NCBI GenBank assembly: GCA_041743505.1
Contig: JBGTMQ010000009.1
Span: 40,012-104,011, forward strand
Length of the DNA stretch: 64,000 nt
Reading direction: 5' to 3'
DNA from: Candidatus Saccharimonadia bacterium
GTDB taxonomy: Bacteria; Patescibacteriota; Saccharimonadia; UBA4664
The notes beneath the pieces are model-generated. The model saw only the letters and a list, made by a program, of their open reading frames with translations. It was not told the DNA's origin and made no database searches. Every line of letters begins with the position of its first letter. The first letter of the stretch is position 1. The translations under genes were made by a program, and so were the position numbers. This document shows positions 795 through 55,315 of this stretch, in pieces.

Positions 795-1751
795 CTATTT
801 ATCAATCTCTCTTATTTTCCGGTGACTCAACCGCGAAATCTCGGCCATTACGGCGTCGCTAAATTCCTGGCGGTCAGCCGCCGTGGCATTATCAGACTGG
901 TAGGGCGGGTGGATCAGCCGGCCAAAGTGGATCTCGACACGGCACATCAGGCGCAACCACCCCTTCAGCGGCTTCACCTGTTCAGTGCCAATAAGCGCCA
1001 CCGGCAATACCGGTGTGCCAGTACGAAAAGCCATGTGAGCCATGCCATGCTTGGCCGGCAGCAAGTATTCATCCGGTGCGCAGCCACCTTCCGGAAACAC
1101 CCCCACCGCGCCATCTTGCTCCAGTACCAGCTCGCCGGCCTTAGCAGCCTCAACCGCCGCGTTGGATCCACGCGCCACCGGAATATGCCCCATCCAGCGA
1201 AGCAGGCGTCCAAAAACCGGAATCTTAAACAGCTCAGCCGCCGCCAAAAACGCCACGTCACGCCGCAGTGCGCCGAACACAAACAACGGATCACTAATCG
1301 ACTGATGGTTCGGACATATCAGCACCCGCCCGGAAGCCGGTACATTCTCGCGGCCGCTTACCGTTACACGAGTGAAAACCCGCATCCGTGCTCCCAGTGA
1401 AAGCCAAAGCCGGACAAAACCGACTACCAATCGCACACGCCGAAGTAGTGACCTTGCCTTCGGATTCTCCGCCTCCTTTGCAAGATGCTTCATTCGCCAG
1501 CTACGCAGCAGGATTCCAATACCGAGAAAAGCTAGCCAACCAAGCAGCTGGGCATAGACCAAAAGCGTATAAGAAGCTCCGGTCACTTGGTGTAAAAAAT
1601 CAGCCGTGAAATAAGCTGCCAGCATACACATGGCTACACTAAAGAGTAAAAGCAGCAATCGCGAAAATTGGGACTTTGGCAGGTCGCTAAAATGTAGTCC
1701 AAAAAAGACCACCCAAAATCCCACCGCAGCGCACAAGGTAGCTATCAACAT
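795..1751 (-). CDS. plsC: 1-acyl-sn-glycerol-3-phosphate acyltransferase (lysophospholipid acyltransferase) with N-terminal TM segments
   Basis: Acyltransferase HX4D motif (NHQSISD) and FPEGG motif in the 318 aa ORF; N-terminal hydrophobic helices. Confidence 0.8.
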   Translation of the reverse strand: MLIATLCAAVGFWVVFFGLHFSDLPKSQFSRLLLLLFSVAMCMLAAYFTADFLHQVTGASYTLLVYAQLLGWLAFLGIGILLRSWRMKHLAKEAENPKARSLLRRVRLVVGFVRLWLSLGARMRVFTRVTVSGRENVPASGRVLICPNHQSISDPLFVFGALRRDVAFLAAAELFKIPVFGRLLRWMGHIPVARGSNAAVEAAKAGELVLEQDGAVGVFPEGGCAPDEYLLPAKHGMAHMAFRTGTPVLPVALIGTEQVKPLKGWLRLMCRVEIHFGRLIHPPYQSDNATAADRQEFSDAVMAEISRLSHRKIREIDK

Positions 1752-1772
1752 ATCAAGTCCCTAGCGGTCATC

Positions 1773-1791
1773 TCACGAGACGGTCTCGTGA
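1773..1791. promoter_or_regulatory. perfect 9-bp-arm palindrome TCACGAGAC-G-GTCTCGTGA in the divergent plsC/exonuclease intergenic region (operator-like)
   Basis: Read directly: tcacgagacggtctcgtga, a self-complementary site between two divergently transcribed genes. Confidence 0.4.
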
Positions 1792-1844
1792 AGCACTACA
1801 TACTATACTATAAATCGACGCATATGTCTGTACCGAATCAATGC

Positions 1845-1873
1845 TTGCGTTCGCTTATTGTTCGGTTTATAAT
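1845..1873 (+). promoter_or_regulatory. sigma70-like promoter (TTGCGT-N17-TATAAT) ending 7 nt before ATG 1881 (leaderless-type)
   Basis: -35 TTGCGT 1845-1850, -10 TATAAT 1868-1873, ATG at 1881. Confidence 0.45.
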
Positions 1874-1880
1874 CTGCCGT

Positions 1881-3296
1881 ATGCAGGGTGCTACTCAATT
1901 ACCGCTCGTCTTCGTCGACATTGAAACCACCGGCAGTAGTTACATCTACGGCCGGGTACTTGAAGTCGCCGCCATCAGAGTAGAGAACAACCGCGTTGTC
2001 GATGAGTTCTCAACCTTGTTAAATCCCATCGGCTATGTCCCTGAGCCTATTACCCGCCTCACCGGTATCACCAGCCAGGACGTCCAGGGCCAGCCGCAGT
2101 TTGAAGAAATAGCCGGCCGGCTGGCAGCCATCATGAACGGAGCTACTTTTGTAGCCCACAACGTCCGTTTCGATTATTCCTTTATCAAGCGCGAATTTGC
2201 CCGTCTTGAGCAAGACTTTTCGCCAAAGTTGTTGTGCACTGTCCGTTTGTCGCGCAGTCTGTTCCCACAATACCGGCAGCACAATCTTCAGGCGCTCATT
2301 GAGCGTCACCAACTCCAAGTCTCAGCCCGACACCGCGCGTACGAGGACGCTCTAGCTTTATGGCAGTTTTACCAGCTCGTGTTGCACGAATTTGATCTCG
2401 ACACCATTGAAAGCGCACTCAACCTGCAATACAAGCGCCAAACCTTGCCGTCCCACCTGAACGAGTCCGACATCCAGCGCCTACCGGACACACCGGGCGT
2501 GTATATCCTCGAGAGTGACGAGCCTACTCCGCTATACATAGGCAAGAGCGTCAACATTCGCCAACGAGTATTATCACATTTCAATAATGACCTTCAAAAA
2601 ACCAGCGAGCTCCAGATCAGCCAGGCCGTCCGCAACATCACCACCATCAAAACCACCGGCGAATTAGGTGCCTTACTCCTCGAATCACGGCTCATCAAAG
2701 AACAGCAGCCACTGCACAATAAACGTCTTCGGAGCATTTCCGAGCTCACTGCCATAACTGAAACCACCAATGCTACCGGATATTTCAGCGCCTCACTCGA
2801 GCAAGGCGGAAATATAGATACCACACTCGGGCTCTACCGCACCATGGGTGTAGCCAAACGCGCCATCGTTGCTTTAGCCGATGAGTACCGGCTTTGCAAA
2901 AAACTTTTAGGCGTGGAAAAAACCCAAGGAGCCTGTTTTGGCCACCAGCTCCATAAATGCGCCGGCGCCTGCATCGGCCAGGAACCCGTGGGTTTATACA
3001 ACACCCGGTTTAACCAAGCCTTTCAAGCCTCCCGCATCCAGCAGTGGCCCTACGACGGCGCCATCCTAATAACCGAGCGGCATCCATTTGTACCGGGAGC
3101 TACAGCCTACCTCATTAATAATTGGAGCCTTGTCGCCCAGATCGACGAAGACGAAAGCGGGGAAGTAGTCATCCGGGAACTAAACCAAGAGTTTGACCTG
3201 GATGCCTACAAAATCGTTTCCAGCTACCTTCGTTCGCCGGTAGCCCGCCGCACCGTCAAGCAGGTAAACGAAGCCGACGTGCTAGCCTTTGCCTAA
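1881..3296 (+). CDS. DnaQ-like 3'-5' exonuclease (Pol III epsilon family) fused to a GIY-YIG nuclease domain
   Basis: N-terminal VFVDIETTG...HNVRFDYSFI (DEDDh exonuclease motifs) and central GVYILESDEPTPLYIGKSVNIRQRV (GIY-YIG). ORF track extends to 1788, but 1881 sits 7 nt after a TATAAT and clear of the divergent plsC start. Confidence 0.8.
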   Translation: MQGATQLPLVFVDIETTGSSYIYGRVLEVAAIRVENNRVVDEFSTLLNPIGYVPEPITRLTGITSQDVQGQPQFEEIAGRLAAIMNGATFVAHNVRFDYSFIKREFARLEQDFSPKLLCTVRLSRSLFPQYRQHNLQALIERHQLQVSARHRAYEDALALWQFYQLVLHEFDLDTIESALNLQYKRQTLPSHLNESDIQRLPDTPGVYILESDEPTPLYIGKSVNIRQRVLSHFNNDLQKTSELQISQAVRNITTIKTTGELGALLLESRLIKEQQPLHNKRLRSISELTAITETTNATGYFSASLEQGGNIDTTLGLYRTMGVAKRAIVALADEYRLCKKLLGVEKTQGACFGHQLHKCAGACIGQEPVGLYNTRFNQAFQASRIQQWPYDGAILITERHPFVPGATAYLINNWSLVAQIDEDESGEVVIRELNQEFDLDAYKIVSSYLRSPVARRTVKQVNEADVLAFA

Positions 3297-3321
3297 AAAA
3301 AGAGCCCCGCAAGCGGGGCTC
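3295..3321. terminator. rho-independent terminator hairpin (AGCCCCGC-AA-GCGGGGCT) flanked by an A6 run; serves convergent genes, T-run on minus strand
   Basis: 8-bp GC stem 3303-3310/3313-3320 with aaaaaa at 3295-3300 (U-tract for the minus-strand gene 3422..3718). Confidence 0.6.
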
Positions 3322-3421
3322 CATCGAGCACTCTCTTGCGGAGCGGGCTGTATCAGCCAAGGGGAACATGAACGTAGTCGGCCCCGTTATCCCGGCGACA
3401 CAGTCGCCTCATCAACATAGA

Positions 3422-3718
3422 TTACTCCTTGCTCTCAAGCGCAGTCGAATTCCGGCGCTGCTTCCCGGCACGAACAGACCAACAAGCCCAAACAACTCCT
3501 CCAACCACCCAGAGTAGACCGCCGATGAGGAGAGCGTAGGACAAGCCGTCGTAGGAAATACCGGTCACGAGATGGACTCCGTAAGCGGTAAAGCAGGCGG
3601 CAGCGGTATAGGCTAGCACCATGAGCACAGGGTTACCTGCAGAAGTACTCAGATTCCGGAAGCAACAGAAGAAAGCTACCCAAAAGGCAGCCGCAAGAGC
3701 CAACATCACTACCCACAT
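3422..3718 (-). CDS. small membrane protein (98 aa, 3 predicted TM helices), hypothetical
   Basis: Hydrophobic ORF MWVVMLALAAAFWVAFF...; no recognisable family. Confidence 0.45.
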   Translation of the reverse strand: MWVVMLALAAAFWVAFFCCFRNLSTSAGNPVLMVLAYTAAACFTAYGVHLVTGISYDGLSYALLIGGLLWVVGGVVWACWSVRAGKQRRNSTALESKE

Positions 3719-3897
3719 GTTAATCCCCTTGAGGTCACTCCAAAGGACAATCCCATGAAGATACTTATATTATACTATAGATACATGAAATTGTCCAGTA
3801 TGCACTATGCGTCGCTACAATTCGCTCCAAAGAAAAAGGCCCGGAGGCCGGCCAGCGCATAACACGCCAACCGGTCCCCGGGACCAAGTGTCTCGCA

Positions 3898-5514
3898 CTA
3901 CTTGTCCTCAGGACGCTTCGTCCAGATCTCCACGACGTTGCAGTGTCGGCGCGACAGCCTTACCCGAACGCCCCCATACGCTCCCTGAAGATTCTCGGAC
4001 AGGGTCTTGGGTGGGCTATCGGACTGGCCAGACCAGCCACCGCGCCTAATCGAACCGACAGCGGTACCTGGGTAACCGCGCTGCGGCAGCCAAGTGCGCC
4101 AGGCAATGCGCGACACATCTAGACGCATCTGGAGACCAGGCAGCACTTGCTGCCAGTTTTCGCCGAGTTCGAATTCGAGTGGCTGGACTGACCAGCCATC
4201 TTCATCGTACTTGGGCGATTCGGCCATCTGCACCGTCACCTCATTTTCCGTACCCCAACCTAGCCCCAAATTCCGGTCCGCGAAAGACACGCGAACTGCC
4301 GGAGTCAGGTCCTGGGTGGTACCGCTCTGGAAGTAGCCCAGTACGACCCAACCATGATCATCGGTGAATTGCTCCACCACATAGCGGTAGGAATCCTGAT
4401 AGTCATACCGGACCCTGAGCTTATCGCCCAAATAGGTCATGGTATCAGCCATCGCCAGGGTAGTAGGCGGACTCCAGTTGGCCGGCTCCTCAACCGGTTC
4501 GAATGTTCCGGTCTGAATCCAATAAGTCCCTTGCGAAGACATCATGAGGCGCATGGTTGGGGTAATGGAGACCCAATCCTGGATCACCTCGGGGATATCC
4601 CATGTGCTGCCACCAGGAGCCGTAACCCGAAGGCCGTAAATGTCACGGCTAGAACTACGGTACCCATCGCCACGAATGAACCGAAACGAGTACCCCTCTG
4701 ACAGGTTCTTGCGTTCCACCCAGAAGGCATCCTTCATCTCACCCCAGATGGGCTCGCATTCCAGCAGCAGCTGATAACTGGTAGCTTGACGGAATTCGAT
4801 CTTCCGTGGGTAGTCAGCTCCAACCCAAAACCGGGCCTGCAAACCAGGAGCAATTGTCCGCCAAGTACGGGTCGCGCGGAAGTACTTCGAGGTACTCCAC
4901 TCCAACTCTGGGAACAAGCGCGTTGCGCGCTGCACCAGAATGCCACTGTTATGGGGCGATCCCCGGTACCGGACAGCCCCACCCAGATACATCCAGTCGT
5001 CGCCCATCTTATCTTCCTTGCTCCAAGGCTCAGACCAGATGTGCTCCGGCTCGGGAGCATGAAGCGGCTGGCGCTTGGAAACAGTCAGCAGACGGTCACC
5101 TTCTTCAACAGACGTAGCCACCTGAATCCGCAGCTCCCGGGTAACCCGTCGCCACTGATCAGTACCTTCAAACTGCTCCACGGAGGACCACAAGCAGTCG
5201 TCATTGTGAGCATGCGACCGCTCGCAATCACGGCGAGTACGGACCTCAACACCACCGGGAATTACCCGCACCTCCATGTCACAGCCGGCGATACCGTCCA
5301 GAGGACGCCACGCCGGACCGGCGTACAGGCGGAACGGTACACCCCAGGGGGTCAAGTCATCCTGGAGTTGATGCAGCACACCAACCCATTGGGCAGCCAG
5401 GTCAGGATCTAGTCCAACTCTGACGAGATCGTCAGCGGTCAGGCCGGCGGTTGCCATCGTGGTATCAAACTGGTTTCCCTGGCCAATGGTGGCCAAATGC
5501 AGTCGCCTGGTCAT
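3898..5514 (-). CDS. hypothetical protein, 538 aa, Trp/Arg-rich, no recognisable domain (orphan)
   Basis: Long uninterrupted ORF. Composition is unusual (many W, R, G; predicted beta-rich), no catalytic motifs recognised. Lone minus-strand gene with an AT-rich upstream region. Confidence 0.55.
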   Translation of the reverse strand: MTRRLHLATIGQGNQFDTTMATAGLTADDLVRVGLDPDLAAQWVGVLHQLQDDLTPWGVPFRLYAGPAWRPLDGIAGCDMEVRVIPGGVEVRTRRDCERSHAHNDDCLWSSVEQFEGTDQWRRVTRELRIQVATSVEEGDRLLTVSKRQPLHAPEPEHIWSEPWSKEDKMGDDWMYLGGAVRYRGSPHNSGILVQRATRLFPELEWSTSKYFRATRTWRTIAPGLQARFWVGADYPRKIEFRQATSYQLLLECEPIWGEMKDAFWVERKNLSEGYSFRFIRGDGYRSSSRDIYGLRVTAPGGSTWDIPEVIQDWVSITPTMRLMMSSQGTYWIQTGTFEPVEEPANWSPPTTLAMADTMTYLGDKLRVRYDYQDSYRYVVEQFTDDHGWVVLGYFQSGTTQDLTPAVRVSFADRNLGLGWGTENEVTVQMAESPKYDEDGWSVQPLEFELGENWQQVLPGLQMRLDVSRIAWRTWLPQRGYPGTAVGSIRRGGWSGQSDSPPKTLSENLQGAYGGVRVRLSRRHCNVVEIWTKRPEDK

Positions 5515-5563
5515 AGTGACTGGGCTCCCTTCAAACTTCCGTCGACTAGCCGGTTGGCTGGTC

Positions 5564-5617
5564 TTTGAGAACGGCTCGCTAGGACCAAGCTATTAGACCC
5601 AGTAAGCCGTTCTCAAA
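5564..5617. other. long hairpin (13-bp stem TTTGAGAACGGCT / AGCCGTTCTCAAA, 28-nt loop) upstream of the 538-aa orphan gene
   Basis: Exact 13-nt inverted repeat read in sequence; not followed by a U-tract on either strand, so unlikely to be a simple terminator. Confidence 0.4.
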
Positions 5618-5705
5618 ATTAGACAAGTAGTAGATTGTCAAAAGACATGCCCTATATGTTAGCATAAACGCCGCAAAAAGTCAATATTTCACCCGTGATT
5701 AAAAA

Positions 5706-5734
5706 TTGACACGATAGCAAGATAGTAGTATTAT
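5706..5734 (+). promoter_or_regulatory. sigma70-like promoter TTGACA-N17-TATTAT
   Basis: Consensus -35 at 5706-5711, -10 TATTAT 5729-5734, 17-nt spacer; ~55 nt upstream of small ORF 5791. Confidence 0.5.
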
Positions 5735-5790
5735 ATGCAGCGACCAACCCATGATCTAGCCTTCAGTTAGAACCGATCAAAGGATGCGCT

Positions 5791-5967
5791 ATGAGTGATG
5801 ACATTGTGCCGGCCGACAACGAAGGGCCCCCTCCCCACAAACTCACTCGGGGTGAGGCCGCTGCTTTACTAGCAAAACTCTTCATGGAGAATGCCGACGC
5901 CGACAACAACGCCGCCAACAGCGATCTAATTGCGGAACTTCGTAAGCGCCAAAGAGACGAGTCGTAA
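5791..5967 (+). CDS. small hypothetical protein (58 aa, acidic/low-complexity)
   Basis: ATG preceded by AAGGA (7-nt spacer) downstream of the consensus promoter; MSDDIVPADNEGPPPHKLTRGEAAALLAKLF... Below the 60-aa ORF-track cutoff and overlaps a probably spurious minus ORF (5763..6212). Confidence 0.3.
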   Translation: MSDDIVPADNEGPPPHKLTRGEAAALLAKLFMENADADNNAANSDLIAELRKRQRDES

Positions 5968-6113
5968 ACCCCATCAACCTGCCACTCTGGCACCCAACCT
6001 CCGCTCATGACGGCTATCACTAACCGTCGTGGGCGACTTTTTATCAAAACCAAACGACAACCCGCGTGCAGTACAATAGAATCGGCCGCATATCCGCAGA
6101 GATTGGGAGCATC

Positions 6114-6239
6114 ATGACCCAATACGAACTGAGCCGGGACGGCTCCAAAAGCTACCGGCGCCTGACCATCGAGCAGGGTATCGACGATATCCGCCCACTG
6201 ATCGAACTTCAACGCCAGCTACGCAAGATCTGCAAATAG
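6114..6239 (+). CDS. small hypothetical ORF (41 aa), stop overlaps the GTG of the next ORF (TAGTG)
   Basis: GGGAG RBS 5 nt upstream of ATG; MTQYELSRDGSKSYRRLTIEQGIDDIRPLIELQRQLRKICK; possibly the 5' piece of a frameshifted gene continued in 6239..6601. Confidence 0.2.
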   Translation: MTQYELSRDGSKSYRRLTIEQGIDDIRPLIELQRQLRKICK

Positions 6240-6601
6240 TGCTAGCCACCGGAGAAACAGCCATTACCGGCGACGTCACTATTTCGGGAACCCAGCTGGC
6301 GCTCTTTGGCTCAGCAAATCGCCCGGTCATTGTCGTGAAGCTATCTAGAGACATCGACTGGCTAAAACACCGGCAGCCGGTTATGGATGCGCTCACCCAG
6401 TTCCTGCTAACTTGCGGCATCAAACAGCCCCGGAAGTTCATGCGCACCAGCCCAAATCTCCGCTTCGGAACCGAAGAAGCCTATATGCCACACCTAACCC
6501 TCGGCACAGCACCCCGCGATACACCAATCGCAGCCGTCAAGTTTACATCCATCCCGATCATCCTCGGCCCAACCACCATCCGGGGCGCAATCCGGCAATA
6601 A
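6239..6601 (+). CDS. hypothetical protein (120 aa); C-terminal H-L-T-L-G motif, possible remnant of a 2H (LigT-like) phosphoesterase
   Basis: GTG-start ORF. HLTLGTAPRD resembles the second HxT/Sx motif of 2H phosphoesterases but a clean first motif is missing (DVTIS at the expected place). Confidence 0.3.
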   Translation: MLATGETAITGDVTISGTQLALFGSANRPVIVVKLSRDIDWLKHRQPVMDALTQFLLTCGIKQPRKFMRTSPNLRFGTEEAYMPHLTLGTAPRDTPIAAVKFTSIPIILGPTTIRGAIRQ

Positions 6602-6629
6602 CCCAACTCGACACGAACAACCCCATGAG

Positions 6630-6663
6630 CCTCTAGTACGCATTTATTACTGCGTACTAGAGG
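6630..6663 (+). other. perfect 13-bp inverted repeat (CCTCTAGTACGCA-tttattac-TGCGTACTAGAGG) between the LigT-like ORF and the pnkp-like gene; terminator or operator
   Basis: Exact hairpin read in sequence, followed by cttt and then a TACAAT -10 (6672-6677) ahead of ATG 6696. Confidence 0.45.
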
Positions 6664-6695
6664 CTTTAAGCTACAATCCAAATCCAGCGATCTGA

Positions 6696-8930
6696 ATGCC
6701 TCGTGGTAAAATTACCCTCACTATGAGAAAACTCTTACTTCTTCGCGGCCTGCCGGGCAGCGGCAAGAGCACTTTTTTGCGGGAAAGCGGTCTGGAGCCC
6801 TATACTCTTTCGGCCGATGGCTTGCGCATGTTCTACAGCGGCCCGGTCATGGAAGCAAATGGCCGTATGCGCATTGCCGCCGACCAGGACCGCACGGTAT
6901 GGCAACAATTACTGCAACTACTCGAAGACCGGATGCGGCGAGGAGAACTGGTAATAGTTGACGCAACCCACACCCATCCCCGGTCATTCCAGAACTATCA
7001 GCAAATTGCCAACCGGTATCGCTACCGGGTTATATGCGTCGATTTCGCCGACATGTCATTTGAGACTTGCGAAAAACGAAATATAAACCGCGAAGAGCAT
7101 AAGGTCGTACCACCGCACGAAATGAAGCGGCTAAATGATAATTTGCTACGTTCACGCTTGCCAAAGTGGATTACCCGGGTTTTACCAGAGGACCTTTTGC
7201 CAACATTGCAAATGGGACCACAAGATATCTCTCACTATAAAGCGGTTCATCACATTGGAGACATCCAAGGCTGCTATACGCCGCTCATGGACTACTTCAA
7301 GAAATACGGCCTCCAGGACGATGAACTCTATATCTTTGTCGGAGATTACCTGGACCGCGGCCCCCAAAACGCCGAGGTCATGACATGGCTATTGGAGAAT
7401 TACCATCGGCGCAATTTCATCTTTCTGGAAGGTAACCATGAGGCCCACCTCCGCGCCTGGGCTGGAGGCGGTAAGCCTCGTAGCCGTCAATTCACCGAAG
7501 CAACCCAGGTCGAACTTGAAGCTGCCGGCTTTTCAACTAAAAAAGTCCATGGCTTTCTCTACCAATTACGCGAAGCCTACTTCTATAACTTCCATGACCA
7601 CATCGTACTGGTAACTCATGGTGGTCTGGCTACGCTTCCCAAAAATCTGACGCTCGTTAGCTCGGCTCAACTTATTAAAGGTGCAGGTGTTTATGAAGAC
7701 GCTGACGCATGCGATACCACATTTGCCGCTACCGCCCCGGCCAATGCCTATCAAATCCATGGCCACCGTAACCGTTACGCCAGTCCCGCTCGGGTCAACG
7801 CCCACTGCTTCAACCTGGAAGGCAAGGTCGAATTTGGTGGCGAACTCCGCACTGTCACGCTAACCCCACAAGGCTTTAAAGAGCGTAGCGTAAAAAGCCT
7901 AATAGATGCTAGTAAAACAATTCTTGAGCCCATCGGCGATTTCTCCGGTGAAATCGAAAATGTCCAAATGCTCGTAGCCGACTTACGCGCCACCCCCGAA
8001 ATCTTGGAGAAACCCCAAACCGGCACCAACATTAGCTCTTTCAACTTTTCCCGCGACGTCTTTTACAAAAAAGCCTGGGACGAGCTCAATGTGCACGCCC
8101 GCGGCCTGTTTATAAATACCGCCCAAAACATAATCGTAGCCCGGTCGTACGAAAAATTCTTTAACCTTGGTGAGCGGCCCGAAACCCAACCCGACGTCCT
8201 AGGCCGTTCCCTAGCCTTTCCGGCTCACGCCTGGATTAAAGAAAATGGTTACTTGGGACTAGTCGGCTATAACCCCGAAACCAAAGAACTGGTGTTTGCG
8301 AGCAAAAGTTCGCTGACTAGCAATTTTGCTGGATGGCTACACCAGCAGTTTGACCAGCTAGCTCCAGCCGGGTCCAAAAACCGCAAAGAGATAACAGAGT
8401 ATCTAAGCCGCAACGACGGTAAGACATTGGTCTTTGAGGCCATCGAACCTCTCAATGACCCACACATTATCGAACACGATGGTCCTCCCTACCTGGTATT
8501 ACTGGACATTGTCAGCAATACCACCCGCTTTGAAGCCGAAAACGATAAAGAACGCCAGAAGATTGCTAAACTTCTTAACTGCCCGGCCAAACGCCAAGCC
8601 GCAATTCTCAAAAACACGGCCGGACTGGAGACTTGGCTGGAAACTGTGCGCGACATCAGTTACAAGCACAACGATCAATACATCGAGGGCTTTGTTCTCG
8701 AAGACGCACACGGCTTCAAAGTAAAGGTCAAACTGCCTTGGTATGCCTTTTGGAGACAAATGCGCACCCAGCTTGAGCGGCTGCAGTCAGGCAAGAAAAC
8801 ACAGCTGCCCACACCCGCAATCGATAATTCCCTGGCAGAGAAATTTCTGGCCTTTCTGGGAGATAAAACAACCACCGAGTTAAAAGCCACCAACATTATC
8901 GACTTGCGCCGGGAATTCTTTAACCAATAG
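6696..8930 (+). CDS. polynucleotide kinase-phosphatase with C-terminal RNA-ligase-like nucleotidyltransferase domain (bacterial Pnkp-type RNA repair enzyme)
   Basis: Three modules in Pnkp order. P-loop kinase (LLLRGLPGSGKSTF, VIVDATH). Calcineurin-type metallophosphatase (GDIQGC, GDYLDRGP, GNHE, GHRN). Ligase motifs: I K-E-N-G-Y (WIKENGYLG, ~residue 512), IV EGFVLE, V FKVKVK. Confidence 0.8.
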   Translation: MPRGKITLTMRKLLLLRGLPGSGKSTFLRESGLEPYTLSADGLRMFYSGPVMEANGRMRIAADQDRTVWQQLLQLLEDRMRRGELVIVDATHTHPRSFQNYQQIANRYRYRVICVDFADMSFETCEKRNINREEHKVVPPHEMKRLNDNLLRSRLPKWITRVLPEDLLPTLQMGPQDISHYKAVHHIGDIQGCYTPLMDYFKKYGLQDDELYIFVGDYLDRGPQNAEVMTWLLENYHRRNFIFLEGNHEAHLRAWAGGGKPRSRQFTEATQVELEAAGFSTKKVHGFLYQLREAYFYNFHDHIVLVTHGGLATLPKNLTLVSSAQLIKGAGVYEDADACDTTFAATAPANAYQIHGHRNRYASPARVNAHCFNLEGKVEFGGELRTVTLTPQGFKERSVKSLIDASKTILEPIGDFSGEIENVQMLVADLRATPEILEKPQTGTNISSFNFSRDVFYKKAWDELNVHARGLFINTAQNIIVARSYEKFFNLGERPETQPDVLGRSLAFPAHAWIKENGYLGLVGYNPETKELVFASKSSLTSNFAGWLHQQFDQLAPAGSKNRKEITEYLSRNDGKTLVFEAIEPLNDPHIIEHDGPPYLVLLDIVSNTTRFEAENDKERQKIAKLLNCPAKRQAAILKNTAGLETWLETVRDISYKHNDQYIEGFVLEDAHGFKVKVKLPWYAFWRQMRTQLERLQSGKKTQLPTPAIDNSLAEKFLAFLGDKTTTELKATNIIDLRREFFNQ

Positions 8931-9087: not shown

Positions 9088-9357
9088 ATGCTAGTACTTG
9101 CCATGCTGTCGGCTATGCCGCTAAACTTCGTTGAATCGCCAGTGCGAACCATTGTCATAAGCTTGATTTGGTTCGCCATCTTTGGCAGCACCGCCGTATA
9201 TCTTGACTACGATATGCGTAGAAAGTACGGCGGTTACAAAACCACAACTGAATCAGTCCTCTGCTGGAGTATTGTCGGCGGGCTTGGGCTAGTCGCTCTT
9301 GCCGGCCTCGTCAACGCCTTTTGGCCCATCATTCTAACCGCCTACACGGCTAGTTGA
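9088..9357 (+). CDS. small membrane protein (89 aa, 2-3 TM), hypothetical
   Basis: AAGGAG RBS upstream; hydrophobic ORF MLVLAMLSAMPLNFVESPVRTIVISLIWFAIFG... Confidence 0.5.
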   Translation: MLVLAMLSAMPLNFVESPVRTIVISLIWFAIFGSTAVYLDYDMRRKYGGYKTTTESVLCWSIVGGLGLVALAGLVNAFWPIILTAYTAS

Positions 9358-9391
9358 CCAAACCCAGCCTCAAACATATGTGAGCACACAA

Positions 9392-9429
9392 GGGCCCAAA
9401 CGCAGGCTGCGTTTGGGCCCTCATTTTTT
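9392..9429 (+). terminator. rho-independent terminator (12-bp stem GGGCCCAAACGC / GCGTTTGGGCCC, loop AGGCT, then TCATTTTTT)
   Basis: Perfect stem read in sequence followed by a T6 run. Confidence 0.75.
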
Positions 9430-9456: not shown

Positions 9457-10473
9457 ATGGATGACAAGCACGACCGCTATCAACCCGCCAAAGCTGCCGA
9501 AGGTCTAGGTATCGGGGCTGAGCGTTACGCCCACGAACTAGGCACGGCAGACAACGACATCGCAGACGCAGAAAGCGCCACGCCGGGCTCAAAACCCACC
9601 GAAAGCGCATCCGTGGCTACTGCCCGAGCCGCAGTTGAAGCAGCTACAGGCCCAACCGAGCCCGAAGCTGCACCCAATGATCAAATCCATACCTTCATCG
9701 ATGAATTAAACGCCCGGGCCGAGGACGCCCGAAGCGACGTCCATACCCGTAGTAGCGATTTGCAACTTATTGACGTCATTGAAAATACATTTTCGCCGCT
9801 CAAACGCACCCGTCTACGTAAATACTGGCAAGAGCACCAAACCGCCGACGCCATACACATCAAGCCCCCTGGCGAGTTGGATAACAACCCAGACGCCCTA
9901 GAGGGTTACATCCGGGAGGTAGCCAAAAAAGGTAACCCCTGGGCCGTTCGGCGGGAACAAATGCTCCTGAGAAACAAAATAGAACACCCCAGTGGCAAGC
10001 AGTACCGCGAAAAAATGCTGGCAGAGACACACCAGTTAGGAATACTTGCCGCAGCCGCCGGTGAAGCCGCCGTCGATCACTTCCGGCGCCTCCAATCGGG
10101 CGAGCCTCTCCCCGAAAACCCCGCTGCTCGCCAATTTGTAATTGATCTGCATCTCGAAACAGAGCATTCAGGCGCTAGTACTAATGATGCCAGGGGCAAA
10201 CGAGTGGAGGAGACAGCGGGGAACCGCTACGACGCGCTGTACGGATACCCACCGGCCGTAGAAGAACTGGTACGATACCAACTCATGGACGCCGGACCAG
10301 CCGCAAGCGAGTGGCACAATGCCGCCCGCGAGGCCGACCAATCCAAAGATAAGTTCTTTAAACCCGGTAAATTCGCAGCCTTAAAGCGGCGTATCCACGA
10401 GGCCCGTGAAGCCACCGCCTCGGCCGCCACAAAAAGCATCGGCCGTTTACGCACTCTTCAAATCGCCACTTAA
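9457..10473 (+). CDS. hypothetical protein (338 aa, acidic, no TM, disordered N-terminus)
   Basis: ORF begins 6 nt after a TATTAT -10 (9445-9450), a leaderless arrangement; no recognisable domain. Confidence 0.55.
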   Translation: MDDKHDRYQPAKAAEGLGIGAERYAHELGTADNDIADAESATPGSKPTESASVATARAAVEAATGPTEPEAAPNDQIHTFIDELNARAEDARSDVHTRSSDLQLIDVIENTFSPLKRTRLRKYWQEHQTADAIHIKPPGELDNNPDALEGYIREVAKKGNPWAVRREQMLLRNKIEHPSGKQYREKMLAETHQLGILAAAAGEAAVDHFRRLQSGEPLPENPAARQFVIDLHLETEHSGASTNDARGKRVEETAGNRYDALYGYPPAVEELVRYQLMDAGPAASEWHNAAREADQSKDKFFKPGKFAALKRRIHEAREATASAATKSIGRLRTLQIAT

Positions 10474-10686: not shown

Positions 10687-12027
10687 ATGAAAGACAGTTA
10701 TTTTGTAATCAAAAAAGACGGCCAAATCGTCGAAGCTGCACCCTATCTTAAGGATGGCGGCGACTCGGATAATTTCAAATTATTCGTCCAACGCGAGGCC
10801 CTAAACCAAAACGTTAACCGCGGTTCCGAGGGCAAGCCCAAGTACCTGGGAGTTGCCAAAAAATTCGGCTTCAATTGGGAGCCAAATGCCGACGTCGGTA
10901 TTCTTCAGTATGACTACAAAGCCAACCTCATGAGCCGGCTCGTGCAGGACTATGCCCGTTCATTGGCGGGCAGGGTAGGGCTGCCGGTATATGAGGTTAA
11001 CGGGTCAAACATATTTAATATGGACCACCCGGTGGTGGAAGCCTACGCCAAACTCTACGGCGACAGATTGTACCAGTTCAAAGCTGGCAACAGCCAAGTC
11101 GTGATGAGCTACGACGCCAGCTACCCTCAGTTCAATCTAGCCGCTAGTCACTCACTAAGCCACAAGAATATACCATTCGCGCATTTCTCTATCTCAGACT
11201 GCTACCGCTATGAACAAAGCGGCGAATGCATGTTGCTCTACCGCCAGCGCCGGTTCTACATGCCTGATATTCATCCTTACTTCAAGGATGTGGCTGAAGC
11301 ATTCGAATGGTACCCCAGGCTGCAAGAGCAGATTCTGGCCGCCTCACAGGAGCTAAAGCGTGACTACGAGATGGTCATCGAGGTCTCGTCCCCTAAGCAT
11401 TGGGAGCAGTTTCAAGCAGAAATAAAAAAAGTCGCCGCCAACTTTGGCCGTGATGTCCTGGTTGGCGTCCACAACGACCAGGCCGACCGCTACTGGATCG
11501 TGAACGTCGATTACAAAATCATCGACGCCCTCGGACAATCCCGGGAGATCGCCTGTATCCAAATCGACGTCGGTAATGCACCTCGCCTCGGCATCAGCTA
11601 CATCAACGAAGCAGGCAACAGCCGGCACCCCGTTATCATCCATTCAGCTATCCCAGGTGGCATTGAACGCTATCTGTATATGGCGCTGGACGGATTCGAT
11701 AACGGCCTTCCGCTCTGGCTTTACCCAGTCCAAATCCGCCTCGTCCCGGTCAGCGACCAACACGTCAGTCTCTGCCAAAAGCTCGTTGCTGACAACGCCC
11801 ACCAACCAGTCCGTATCGAAATCGACGACCGAAATGAAAGTGTCGGCAAAAAAGTCAAACAAGCCCACGAAGACCTGGTCCCATTAGTAGTCGTGATAGG
11901 GGAGAAGGAGCAAGCAAATGGCGCCATAGAGCTGGATAAAGCTATCGCCCAAATCCTAGGCTCCTCGCTCAACCGCCCATTCATCCCGCGCCAGTGGCCA
12001 GAGCTAGTGAGCCGGCAAATACATTGA
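10687..12027 (+). CDS. threonyl-tRNA synthetase-like protein: class II catalytic core + anticodon-binding domain, lacking the N-terminal TGS and editing domains
   Basis: Matches ThrRS, including the zinc ligands: CYRYEQSGE ~ CHRNEPSG; RQRRFYMPDIHPYF ~ RVRGFTQDDAHIF (motif 2); HPVIIHSAIPGGIERY ~ PVMIHRAILGSMERF (motif 3); LPLWLYPVQIRLVPV ~ FPTWLAPVQVVIM (anticodon-binding domain). Only 446 aa against ~640 for canonical ThrRS. Confidence 0.75.
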   Translation: MKDSYFVIKKDGQIVEAAPYLKDGGDSDNFKLFVQREALNQNVNRGSEGKPKYLGVAKKFGFNWEPNADVGILQYDYKANLMSRLVQDYARSLAGRVGLPVYEVNGSNIFNMDHPVVEAYAKLYGDRLYQFKAGNSQVVMSYDASYPQFNLAASHSLSHKNIPFAHFSISDCYRYEQSGECMLLYRQRRFYMPDIHPYFKDVAEAFEWYPRLQEQILAASQELKRDYEMVIEVSSPKHWEQFQAEIKKVAANFGRDVLVGVHNDQADRYWIVNVDYKIIDALGQSREIACIQIDVGNAPRLGISYINEAGNSRHPVIIHSAIPGGIERYLYMALDGFDNGLPLWLYPVQIRLVPVSDQHVSLCQKLVADNAHQPVRIEIDDRNESVGKKVKQAHEDLVPLVVVIGEKEQANGAIELDKAIAQILGSSLNRPFIPRQWPELVSRQIH

Positions 12028-12087: not shown

Positions 12088-13092
12088 ATGGACACACGCG
12101 AGTTCGTCAAGGCCTATCCCGATAGCCTCAAGCCCGGGCAGATACATAGCGGTCCGCACTCCGCGCTAATTCATGACGCACAGGAGTGGTCGTATCGTTT
12201 TGGACTGCTCTTGCACATGCTGTTATCTAGCCAGGCCAATGACGCACCCAGCATGCCCACTGACGACTTTGACGATTACATGGGCTGGGCTAAGCACAAT
12301 GTTAGTGACCAAGAAATAGACTTGATCACTCAGCCAGACGGGCTGAGAGCTCGTAATGAAATTAATTTTCATACCATGAACCGGTGCATGGTAAACCTAT
12401 GGACGCCGCTCTTCTCGCGACTGTGGTCTTCCGACAAAGAGCGGCTCAGTCAGCTAGCCTACAGCCAACGTACGCTAGCCTTCATGGGTACGGTTTACTA
12501 TGTGAGCCGGCAGGATTACACGAAACACCACGGAGATCACGCACTCTTTGAACCGGCATTCAAAGAGATACTCGGTACCATGAATGGCTTCATGCAGGAA
12601 TACGATGCCGCCATCATCCTGCTCGACATCATCCGGCGTCACCCAAGTCTCACGCTAGTGCCGGCGCCATTGCAATTTGAGCGCACCATCAAGCGCACCA
12701 ATGTCGACTTCATTGTGACCGACGTAGTGTCACAGCAAGCGGTGGGGATCCAGGTTAAGACCAACGTCCGCCAGTCGGACATTAACATAGCCGACAGCGA
12801 CCGCGTCGTGCTTATAGATGGCAATGTCGATTTGCAAAATGTTAAAGCCGTCCGCACCCGACGCAGACAGTCCGACCAGCGGGTCGTGCCCTGGCCCGGC
12901 TTGATCGCCGCTCATTATATCCAGTCACTTCGGGCCAAAGGTAGCGGCCCTGAGCGCATGTCTACGCACGAACTCCAAAGCCAACTCCGCCTTAAGATGC
13001 ACGTCCAGCCACACATCGGCGGCATCAGAGTTGACCGTCGGGAAATCGCCAAGTCCATTGGCGAGCGCATACTGGCAAAACTCTACACCTGA
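12088..13092 (+). CDS. hypothetical protein (334 aa)
   Basis: Good RBS (GAGAGAGG) upstream; no confident domain. A weak D...(Q)VK pattern (VDFIVTDVVSQQAVGIQVK) could hint at a PD-(D/E)xK-like fold but is not established. Confidence 0.55.
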   Translation: MDTREFVKAYPDSLKPGQIHSGPHSALIHDAQEWSYRFGLLLHMLLSSQANDAPSMPTDDFDDYMGWAKHNVSDQEIDLITQPDGLRARNEINFHTMNRCMVNLWTPLFSRLWSSDKERLSQLAYSQRTLAFMGTVYYVSRQDYTKHHGDHALFEPAFKEILGTMNGFMQEYDAAIILLDIIRRHPSLTLVPAPLQFERTIKRTNVDFIVTDVVSQQAVGIQVKTNVRQSDINIADSDRVVLIDGNVDLQNVKAVRTRRRQSDQRVVPWPGLIAAHYIQSLRAKGSGPERMSTHELQSQLRLKMHVQPHIGGIRVDRREIAKSIGERILAKLYT

Positions 13093-54805: not shown

Positions 54806-55315
54806 GTGACACTCCTGGTTATCCTCCTGGTCGTGCTGCCATTCGGTATCGCGGCCTGGCTGGGAGCGCCATATTTACCAAGCTTGCGCCGCGACTACGA
54901 GCCGGCTTTAGCATTGGCCGGCCTCAAACCCGGCCAGACCCTCATCGACCTCGGTTCCGGCGACGGTCGGCTATTGCGAGCTGCAGCCAAGCATGGCGTT
55001 CGCGGTATCGGCTACGAGATTAACCCGTTCGTCTACGCAATATCGCTCATCGTCACCTGGCGCTACCGAAAGCTAGTCACTATTTATCTGGCCGACTTCT
55101 GGCACGTCCCTCTACCACCTGCCAATGCCATCTACGTCTTCTTAATTGACCGGTTTATGATCAAACTCGATGCGAAGCTAACGCGTGAAATCAAGCAACC
55201 CACACCCGTCATATCATTCGTATTCCAAATCCCGGGCCACACCCCTCGCCTCCAAACCCGTAACGCCTGGTTGTATGATTATCCAAAAACGATACCGATA
55301 ATACCGTCCAGTTGA
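54806..55315 (+). CDS. small class I SAM-dependent methyltransferase with N-terminal TM helix
   Basis: Motif I LIDLGSGDGRLL and acidic motif II GYEIN; GTG start directly after the xseB stop. Confidence 0.55.
   Translation: MTLLVILLVVLPFGIAAWLGAPYLPSLRRDYEPALALAGLKPGQTLIDLGSGDGRLLRAAAKHGVRGIGYEINPFVYAISLIVTWRYRKLVTIYLADFWHVPLPPANAIYVFLIDRFMIKLDAKLTREIKQPTPVISFVFQIPGHTPRLQTRNAWLYDYPKTIPIIPSS

Follow-up and report, generated by a model that had tools for sequence, protein, structure and literature searches.

We analysed a 64,000-nucleotide stretch (the window) of contig JBGTMQ010000009.1 from a Candidatus Saccharimonadia bacterium, in which a 744-codon gene encodes a three-domain protein that is a hybrid of Pnkp-type RNA-healing modules (a kinase and a metallophosphoesterase) and a sealing module of the Trl1-LIG/Rnl6 type, the type of the fungal tRNA ligase. 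We infer its activities, substrate and role, and think it quite likely that the gene encodes an autonomous RNA heal-and-seal enzyme that works without Hen1. The gene is unexceptional within its family, which is large, occurs in bacteria and phages and has been catalogued by name only; the new point is that this uncharacterised family carries a fungal-type Rnl6 ligase together with the residues of its 2'-phosphate pocket.

The 744-aa open reading frame (ORF) was present as an earlier, sequence-only reading of this DNA had described it, and the order of domains given there (kinase, metallophosphatase, ligase) was correct: Pfam placed AAA_33 at aa 13-141 (7e-20), Metallophos at aa 184-287 (5.4e-12) and RNA_lig_T4_1 (PF09511) at aa 468-683 (8.7e-35). 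The ligase motifs named in that reading were all found as well (K515-E-N-G518, E664-GFVLE, and K677 and K679 within FKVKVK). The AlphaFold2 (AF2) model of the protein had a mean predicted local distance difference test (pLDDT) score of 90.4, and values below 50 were confined to residues 1-6. Because of these low values, and because the homologues begin with MRKLLLLRG, matching the window protein from M10, the true conserved start is probably M10 (ATG at 6723).

The description of the whole protein as Pnkp-type did not hold. TIGR04075, the NCBIfam equivalog model for Pnkp, reached 67.1 bits where its cutoff is 750, and matched only residues 6-313, and the ligase was PF09511/Trl1-LIG-like with a C-domain of its own. 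When a 29-sequence family profile was compared with PDB sequences, the ligase region matched the LIG domain of fungal tRNA ligases at 4e-31 (9qw7) and 8.5e-26 (6n0v), over profile positions 431/451-730; T4 Rnl1 was matched at just 4e-10, in the nucleotidyltransferase core. The ligase alignment began about 60-85 residues ahead of motif I, covering the Rnl1-like N-subdomain, and the alignments to both fungal structures extended across the fungal C-domain as far as the terminal IIxLRxxF; the alignment to T4 Rnl1 stopped just past motif V. In a Foldseek comparison of the AF2 model with the PDB, the top matches were Trl1-LIG structures (E ~1e-15, template modelling score on the target, TM(target), 0.66-0.72, 353-373 columns on targets of 372-395 residues), T4 Rnl1 ranked after them (TM(target) 0.53-0.57), and no Pnkp ligase structure was among the top 50 matches. 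The Rnl6 (Trl1-LIG) clade is defined by its C-domain (PMC6379707), and the C-domain of the model showed helices at 681-697, 711-722, 726-730 and 734-743. By profile and by predicted fold, the ligase is of the Trl1-LIG (Rnl6) type over its whole length, the helical C-domain included, and is not an Rnl4. Conservation was assessed in 29 close homologues (41-70% identity) and 82 further, mostly viral sequences: K515, K537, E581 and H590 were invariant in both sets, E664, K677 and K679 were present in 29/29 and 81/82, and R690 in 29/29 and 80/82, the rest being gaps.

The likeness to the fungal ligase extended to its 2'-phosphate pocket. In Chaetomium Trl1-LIG (CthTrl1), a sulfate taken as a mimic of the 2'-PO4 is bound by N150, H227, R334 and R337 (PMC6379707), and the fungal His-Arg-Arg triad enforces the preference for 2'-PO4 (PMC11404444; PMC12440814). 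N517, H590, R687 and R690 of the window protein aligned with these four residues. Among the close homologues, N517 was kept in 28/29 and H590, Arg or Lys at 687, and R690 in 29/29 each, and the further sequences were similar; position 687 is Arg within the subclade of the window protein and Lys in most other members. In T4 Rnl1, an enzyme unable to seal 2'-P ends (PMC12440814), the four positions show D, no His, H and K; the T4 Rnl1 query was checked and was 100% identical to phage T4 rnlA.

The healing domains were nearest to the Pnkp of Clostridium thermocellum (CthPnkp). The kinase matched the CthPnkp kinase 4gp7 at 5e-12 by profile, and 4gp6/4gp7 by Foldseek (TM(target) 0.73-0.75); K24 and S25 of the P-loop, D41 and R44 were invariant in the 29 and 82 sequences. 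The phosphoesterase matched the CthPnkp phosphatase 4j6o at 1.5e-11 to 4.5e-11 (200 profile positions at 1.5e-11) and also lambda phosphatase 1g5b, with TM(target) of 0.64 for the Pnkp phosphatase and 0.72 for lambda phosphatase. Its residues D189, D217, R221, N247, H248, H308 and H357 were invariant in the same two sets. On the adenylylation lysine and the phosphatase metal ligands, which the earlier reading proposed to check against CthPnkp, K515 and the other ligase motifs were intact, and all phosphoesterase motifs were present save one change, H to Q at position 191, where Q191 aligned with the metal-binding His of GDxHG (GDIHG in PP1; also in lambda phosphatase and Pnkp). Of the close homologues, 22/29 had Q at position 191; of the mostly viral sequences, 72/82 had H there. 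As the carriers of GDIQG are spread over three phyla (Saccharimonadales, Verrucomicrobiae, Actinomycetaceae) at 41-70% identity, Q191 is, judging from the alignments, a conserved variant under purifying selection and not a sign of decay.

The ligase of Pnkp is inactive until it is complemented by the N-domain of Hen1 (PMC4411300). The window ligase is not this Rnl4 adenylyltransferase, so that the lack of Hen1 is to be expected and is no anomaly; its own C-domain is sufficient reason for independence from Hen1. We agree that no methyltransferase is adjacent to the gene, and neither a Hen1-type nor a Tpt1-type domain was found in window ORFs of 150 aa or more. Nine independent genomic contexts of homologues likewise lacked Hen1 and had no neighbour in common, and no conserved partner emerged across 38 non-redundant loci (332 neighbouring ORFs in 269 clusters, the largest of which occurred in 7/38). 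The idea of a Hen1-independent healing and sealing enzyme, raised in the sequence-only reading as one of two options, was supported by the class of the ligase and by the synteny. With no Hen1 partner, no 2'-O-methylation of the junction is predicted.

A methyltransferase beside a 65%-identical homologue (locus L001) was considered as Hen1-like and rejected; its best PDB relatives were generic small-molecule methyltransferases and included no Hen1. A 169-aa ORF of the window (54806-55315), 46 kb from the repair gene, scored 22 bits with Methyltransf_23 (cutoff 27) and showed no sign of being related to Hen1. PADLOC, which has no model for the family, gave no match for the repair protein or its neighbours. 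One 62%-identical homologue (L012), in a related Saccharimonadales metagenome-assembled genome (MAG), was flanked by an RlaP nucleotidyltransferase (PF10127, 1.9e-60) and a CCA-adding enzyme, in what looks like a small tRNA-repair neighbourhood (1417-3513 and 5991-7845 of that locus); upstream lies a 698-aa protein in which one segment is weakly TerD-like. Sporadic neighbours in the phage loci were RlaP, a CCA-adding enzyme, an Rnl5-type ligase, and Macro, PTH2 and SLOG domains.

We propose that the N-terminal P-loop kinase would phosphorylate the 5'-OH end of a broken RNA and that the central phosphoesterase, of the Mn/Ni-type binuclear kind, would open or remove the 2',3'-cyclic phosphate, these being the two ends that result from cutting by metal-independent ribotoxins, anticodon nucleases among them. 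The C-terminal ligase, presumably adenylylated on K515 with ATP, would then join the healed ends, and its own RNA-end-binding C-domain would replace the need for the Hen1 N-domain. The most plausible role would be repair of tRNA or rRNA cut in inter-microbial or phage-host conflict. A 2H phosphoesterase gene upstream, now a pseudogene, may once have supplied a second activity for opening the cyclic phosphate. Several points weigh against this proposal. The Trl1-like pocket does not follow from a simple Pnkp-like pathway giving 2'-OH/3'-OH ends, and Q191 could make the phosphatase step weaker or different. Around the gene, the window has housekeeping genes or ORFs of no assigned function, and there is no inducible or toxin-linked context that points to a substrate. 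Lastly, the searchable literature contained no measured activity for any member of the family.

The pocket raises a tentative refinement of the heal-and-seal reading, namely that a Trl1-type (Rnl6) ligase, hitherto regarded as a mark of fungi or eukaryotes, exists in bacteria and phages, fused to Pnkp-type healing domains, and that it joins 3'-OH/2'-PO4 ends as the fungal tRNA ligase does, with a 2'-phosphate remaining at the junction; we hold this as possible, though doubtful. The cyclic phosphate would be converted to 3'-OH/2'-PO4 by the phosphoesterase or, formerly, by the 2H enzyme, the ligase would prefer or require the 2'-PO4, and the junction phosphate would be removed by a Tpt1/KptA-type enzyme or kept as a block to re-cleavage. 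The counterparts of all four residues around the 2'-PO4 mimic, their conservation in the 29 and 82 sequences, the part played by the fungal triad and the different residues of T4 Rnl1 are all consistent with it. Further, the H189D mutant of CthPnkp, changed at the position of Q191, is reported to act as a pure 2',3'-cyclic phosphodiesterase whose only product is 2'-NMP (nucleoside monophosphate; PMC2190708), and a 2H enzyme, of the class that makes 2'-PO4 ends, was formerly encoded directly upstream. However, the canonical His at 191 is retained by 72/82 mostly phage members, Lys occupies 687 in most members, and the monoesterase-type R221 and H248 are invariant, so that full dephosphorylation to the diol is plausible. 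The 2'-P preference of the fungal ligase is itself strong but not absolute (PMC12440814), and the pocket could bind another RNA phosphate. No Tpt1/KptA was found in the window or the fetched loci, where the test of the loci was weak, its E. coli KptA query being an unverified sequence.

It is improbable that the main activity is the repair of DNA ends (5'-OH/3'-phosphate nicks, in the style of PNKP plus a ligase) and not of RNA. Kinases of the CthPnkp type phosphorylate 5'-OH ends of both DNA and RNA (PDB 4mde has the kinase with DNA), and DNA-repair genes are nearby in the window, for example the one for a Cho-like nuclease; but the ligase falls in the RNA-ligase clades Rnl1/Rnl6, the characterised members of which use RNA 3'-OH ends (PMC6379707), no OB-fold or DNA-ligase-type domain was found, and RlaP, the CCA-adding enzyme and PTH2, among the sporadic neighbours, are tRNA/RNA-repair genes. 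Slightly less probable again is that the copy in the window is a relic, in decay or active only in part, with a phosphatase crippled by Q191. The loss of a canonical metal ligand, the broken 2H gene alongside and the rearrangement of the locus relative to a close relative would fit such a relic; against it, the 744 codons are intact, all of the other catalytic residues are conserved, and GDIQG is common to 22/29 homologues, as described above. Least probable, and rejected on the TIGR04075 score and the clade of the ligase, is a canonical Pnkp whose Hen1 is encoded elsewhere and is needed for sealing and 2'-O-methylation: the CthPnkp kinase and phosphatase are the closest solved relatives, TIGR04075 does match weakly and our view of the genome is confined to 64 kb, yet the ligase with its own C-domain is not Rnl4, no Hen1 was seen in the nine homologue contexts or the 38 loci, and many phage members are solitary genes.

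Among known systems, the predicted heal-and-seal protein shares with bacterial Pnkp (C. thermocellum; TIGR04075) the order of 5'-kinase, binuclear metallophosphoesterase and adenylyltransferase/ligase, and the Pnkp kinase and phosphatase are the nearest solved structures to its healing modules. The Pnkp ligase, in contrast, is an Rnl4 without a C-domain of its own that is completed by the Hen1 N-domain, whereas the ligase of the window protein is Trl1-LIG/Rnl6-like; the TIGR04075 profile is 851 positions long and the window protein 744 aa, there is no adjacent hen1 (in the 64-kb window and the nine contexts), and motif I of the phosphatase is GDIQG. Fungal Trl1 has a LIG domain that is homologous over its full length (N-subdomain, motifs I/Ia/III/IV/V and helical C-domain) and the same Asn/His/Arg/Arg 2'-PO4 pocket, and both proteins are trifunctional heal-and-seal proteins. 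They differ in domain order (LIG-KIN-CPD in Trl1; kinase-phosphoesterase-ligase in the window protein), in the healer of the 3' end, which is a 2H cyclic phosphodiesterase in Trl1 and a metallophosphoesterase in the window, where 2H occurs only as a separate broken gene, and in the kinase, which is GTP-specific in Trl1 and Pnkp-like in the window protein; the hosts of the latter are bacteria and phages without a tRNA-splicing role.

Phage T4 Pnkp plus Rnl1 similarly brings a kinase, a phosphatase and a PF09511 ligase to bear on anticodon-nuclease damage, the nucleotidyltransferase core is homologous, and the family described here is common in phages. The T4 activities are on two polypeptides and use a DxDxT acylphosphatase, unlike the single polypeptide with a metallophosphoesterase in the window; moreover, the C-domain is not Rnl1-like, and TIGR02308 (the T4 RnlA equivalog) scored 23.7 bits against a cutoff of 242. 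The Pnkp1-Rnl-Hen1 system of Capnocytophaga gingivalis (PMC4411300) also pairs kinase-phosphatase healing with a ligase from a separate clade in response to ribotoxin damage; it is a heterohexamer that requires Hen1, whereas in the window protein the activities are fused and there is no conserved partner. The family to which the window protein belongs is phrog_8238, or the 'RNA ligase' of NCBI with the architecture AAA_33-Metallophos-RNA_lig_T4_1, from which it shows no structural difference.

The gene is, then, not an orphan Pnkp that has been stripped of Hen1; its independence from Hen1 is explained structurally by its own C-domain. Rnl6 ligases with their 2'-phosphate pocket extend beyond the fungi, a point that bears on the origin of the eukaryotic tRNA ligase. 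Should the tentative 2'-phosphate chemistry prove true, the eukaryotic tRNA-splicing ligase would seem to stem from prokaryotes or phages, and the bacterial and phage Tpt1/KptA enzymes would gain a natural substrate; alternatively, the junction 2'-phosphate could block re-cleavage, much as Hen1 methylation does. The members of the family are candidates for making the 2'-phosphate RNA junctions on which the long-puzzling bacterial Tpt1/KptA enzymes would act. RNA work could also gain a reagent in the form of a single-chain heal-and-seal enzyme.

The sequence-only reading had treated the gene as unusual, which the breadth of the family contradicts. A homologue search gave at least 1,936 matches, and the best 120 of these all had the same three-domain architecture; the sources were Saccharimonadales, Verrucomicrobiae, Actinomycetaceae and Firmicutes, under the NCBI name 'RNA ligase', and the closest homologues came from MAGs of the Saccharimonadales type (Candidate Phyla Radiation, CPR). 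A scan of genome contigs gave only two relatives. The PHROG family phrog_8238 ('RNA ligase') matched end to end, residues 10-741 aligning to positions 1-729 of a 737-position profile (E 1.2e-196). Among deposited phage genomes 297 matched, 112 of them over the full length, including SPbeta-like Bacillus, Staphylococcus, Streptomyces, Lactobacillus and Alicyclobacillus phages, with annotations of 'RNA ligase', 'polynucleotide kinase' or 'hypothetical'; the fused gene was also on 376 viral contigs of IMG/VR and was seldom carried by plasmids. The searchable literature contained no study characterising the fused architecture and no Rnl6 outside eukaryotes, and an earlier computational description is possible. 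One IMG/VR contig (3300028591_000074, 253 kb; L060 and L099) has two kinase-phosphoesterase-ligase copies, with an RlaP-like gene directly after the L060 copy. In Flintibacter muris (GCA_943192995.1; L007) the homologue lies in a prophage-like block with Dam, MethyltransfD12, N6_N4_Mtase and DNA_methylase genes and a gene like those for phosphoadenosine phosphosulfate (PAPS) reductase; these methyltransferases and the PAPS-reductase-like gene look like anti-restriction cargo.

The most locus-specific feature of the window is the decayed 2H gene ahead of the repair gene. The neighbours listed in the sequence-only reading were all present (the 89-aa ORF at 9088-9357; ORFs at 5791-5967 and 6066/6114-6239; and a 120-aa ORF at 6239-6601 with PHLTLG), and its guess that a 2H phosphoesterase had decayed here was right: a single LigT-like gene, by its sequence a pseudogene, is split between the ORFs at 6114-6239 and 6239-6601. 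About 44-46 residues between the two halves have been lost to an internal deletion, including the first HxT motif (the DLHVTxLHLG segment); the intact homologues are LigT-like, with two HxT motifs and some 190-235 aa. Pfam scored 15.5 bits with the 120-aa ORF alone, which is below threshold, and 16.6 with the joined fragments, and the 120-aa ORF had no close relatives sharing 5-mers. A HMMER search with this ORF against 1.84 billion representatives gave 45 matches (P0122 at 1e-25). Leaving aside the query and a repeat protein of 1,840 aa, the 2H homologues were 164-236 aa long and were matched in their C-terminal half, and one of them, P0125, passed both LigT_PEase (34 bits, cutoff 23.3) and 2_5_RNA_ligase2 (30.1, cutoff 27). 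The repeat protein (P0140) has nine separate stretches that match the C-terminal half of the 2H family, an unusual tandem multiplication.

The same broken arrangement was found in an independently assembled contig, in which the 41-aa and 58-aa genes were called. In a close relative (L020, whose Cho-like gene has 84% protein identity), an intact 189-aa 2H copy, the only close one, lies 87 bp downstream of the Cho-like gene; this contig is 1.5 kb long and ends 7 bp past the 2H stop. No linkage between a 2H gene and the repair gene was seen in the other fetched loci by tblastn with 43 2H homologues, a distant 2H homologue (L021) was unlinked to the repair gene, and metagenome scans with P0137 and P0122 gave nothing. 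The positions of these and the other features are collected in Table 1.

Table 1. Features in and around the predicted RNA-repair gene, numbered by position in the 64-kb window.
Feature	Positions	Strand	Basis or description
Trifunctional kinase / metallophosphoesterase / RNA ligase gene (predicted activities)	6696..8930	+	744-aa ORF, Pfam, PHROG match, AF2 model
Predicted polynucleotide 5'-kinase domain, aa ~10-160	6723..7175	+	P-loop GLPGSGKST; D41, R44, D89, R132 invariant
Predicted binuclear metallophosphoesterase domain, aa ~180-400	7233..7895	+	GD189-I-Q191-G, GD217xxDR221, GN247H248E, H308, GH357
Predicted ATP-dependent RNA ligase domain, Trl1-LIG (Rnl6) type, aa ~430-744	7983..8927	+	K515 (I), K537 (Ia), E581 (III), E664GFV (IV), K677/K679 (V), helical C-domain with R687/R690
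N-terminal fragment of broken 2H (LigT-like) gene, 41 codons	6114..6239	+	MTQYELSRDGSKSYRRLTIEQ aligns with N-terminus of intact homologues, e.g. P0122, MTQYEFCQDSQGRYHRLSIEQ
C-terminal fragment of the same 2H gene, 120 codons, different frame	6239..6601	+	Second HxT motif only (PHLTLG)
Sigma-70-like promoter match, TTGACA-17-TATTAT	5706..5734	+	11/12; ahead of 58-aa ORF
58-aa ORF, no tie to repair gene evident	5791..5967	+	No family match (Pfam, PHROG)
Perfect hairpin between 2H remnant and repair gene	6627..6666	+	15-16 bp stem, 8-nt loop, no T-run
89-aa predicted membrane ORF, downstream	9088..9357	+	Not conserved beside homologues
Strong intrinsic-terminator-like hairpin	9391..9421	+	14 pairs, 9 G-C; 15-nt perfect arms; T-run; tail CATTTTTTAT

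The transcription signals described earlier for this region stood in part. The consensus promoter was present with 11 of 12 matching positions, and is only suggestive because the 4.1-kb region held 8 promoter-like sites where shuffled sequences gave 3.5 +/- 2.1. The second -10 ahead of the repair gene could be seen (TACAAT, 6672-6677), and no -35 partner for it was found in the scan. That these elements and the repair gene form one coherent unit with its own promoter is doubtful, because the promoter match lies in about 2.8 kb of DNA (window 3311-6104) that is missing from the L020 contig of the close relative. Within this extra DNA lie a 538-aa ORF (3898-5514, minus strand), for which Pfam, NCBIfam, PHROGs and PADLOC gave no match, a 98-aa membrane ORF and the 58-aa ORF, in addition to the promoter match. 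It also has promoter-like sites in divergent arrangement and, at 5564-5617, an imperfect 25-nt inverted repeat.

The 13-bp palindrome reported between the 2H remnant and the repair gene (6630-6663) was perfect, as claimed, and in fact longer, with arms of 15 nt (6628-6642/6651-6665). As RNA the hairpin had a folding energy of -29.2 kcal/mol (z = -6.6); it occurs in a single copy in the window and may end or stabilise the upstream transcript. It was not kept in the relatives, and the corresponding place in L012 is taken by an unrelated hairpin of terminator-like form. The terminator-like hairpin downstream probably ends a transcript running through the repair gene and the 89-aa ORF; it sits just before a 338-aa ORF (9457-10473).

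The window resembles part of the chromosome of a Saccharimonadales-type bacterium, and its remainder is housekeeping in content (ScpA/B, Der, Pth, topoisomerase I, penicillin-binding protein 1 (PBP1), release factor (RF), FtsEX, CTP synthase, RecO and others). The 338-aa ORF and a 334-aa ORF (12088-13092), neither of which had a match in four profile libraries, flank a gene like that for threonyl-tRNA synthetase (10687-12027, 446 aa). The product of this gene matched the archaeal-type model PRK03991 from position 153 only (378 bits, cutoff 484), and appears to be without the N-terminal editing region. At the other side of the repair gene, a 502-aa protein (1788-3296) has a DEDD (DnaQ-like) exonuclease fused to a GIY-YIG/Cho-type excinuclease.

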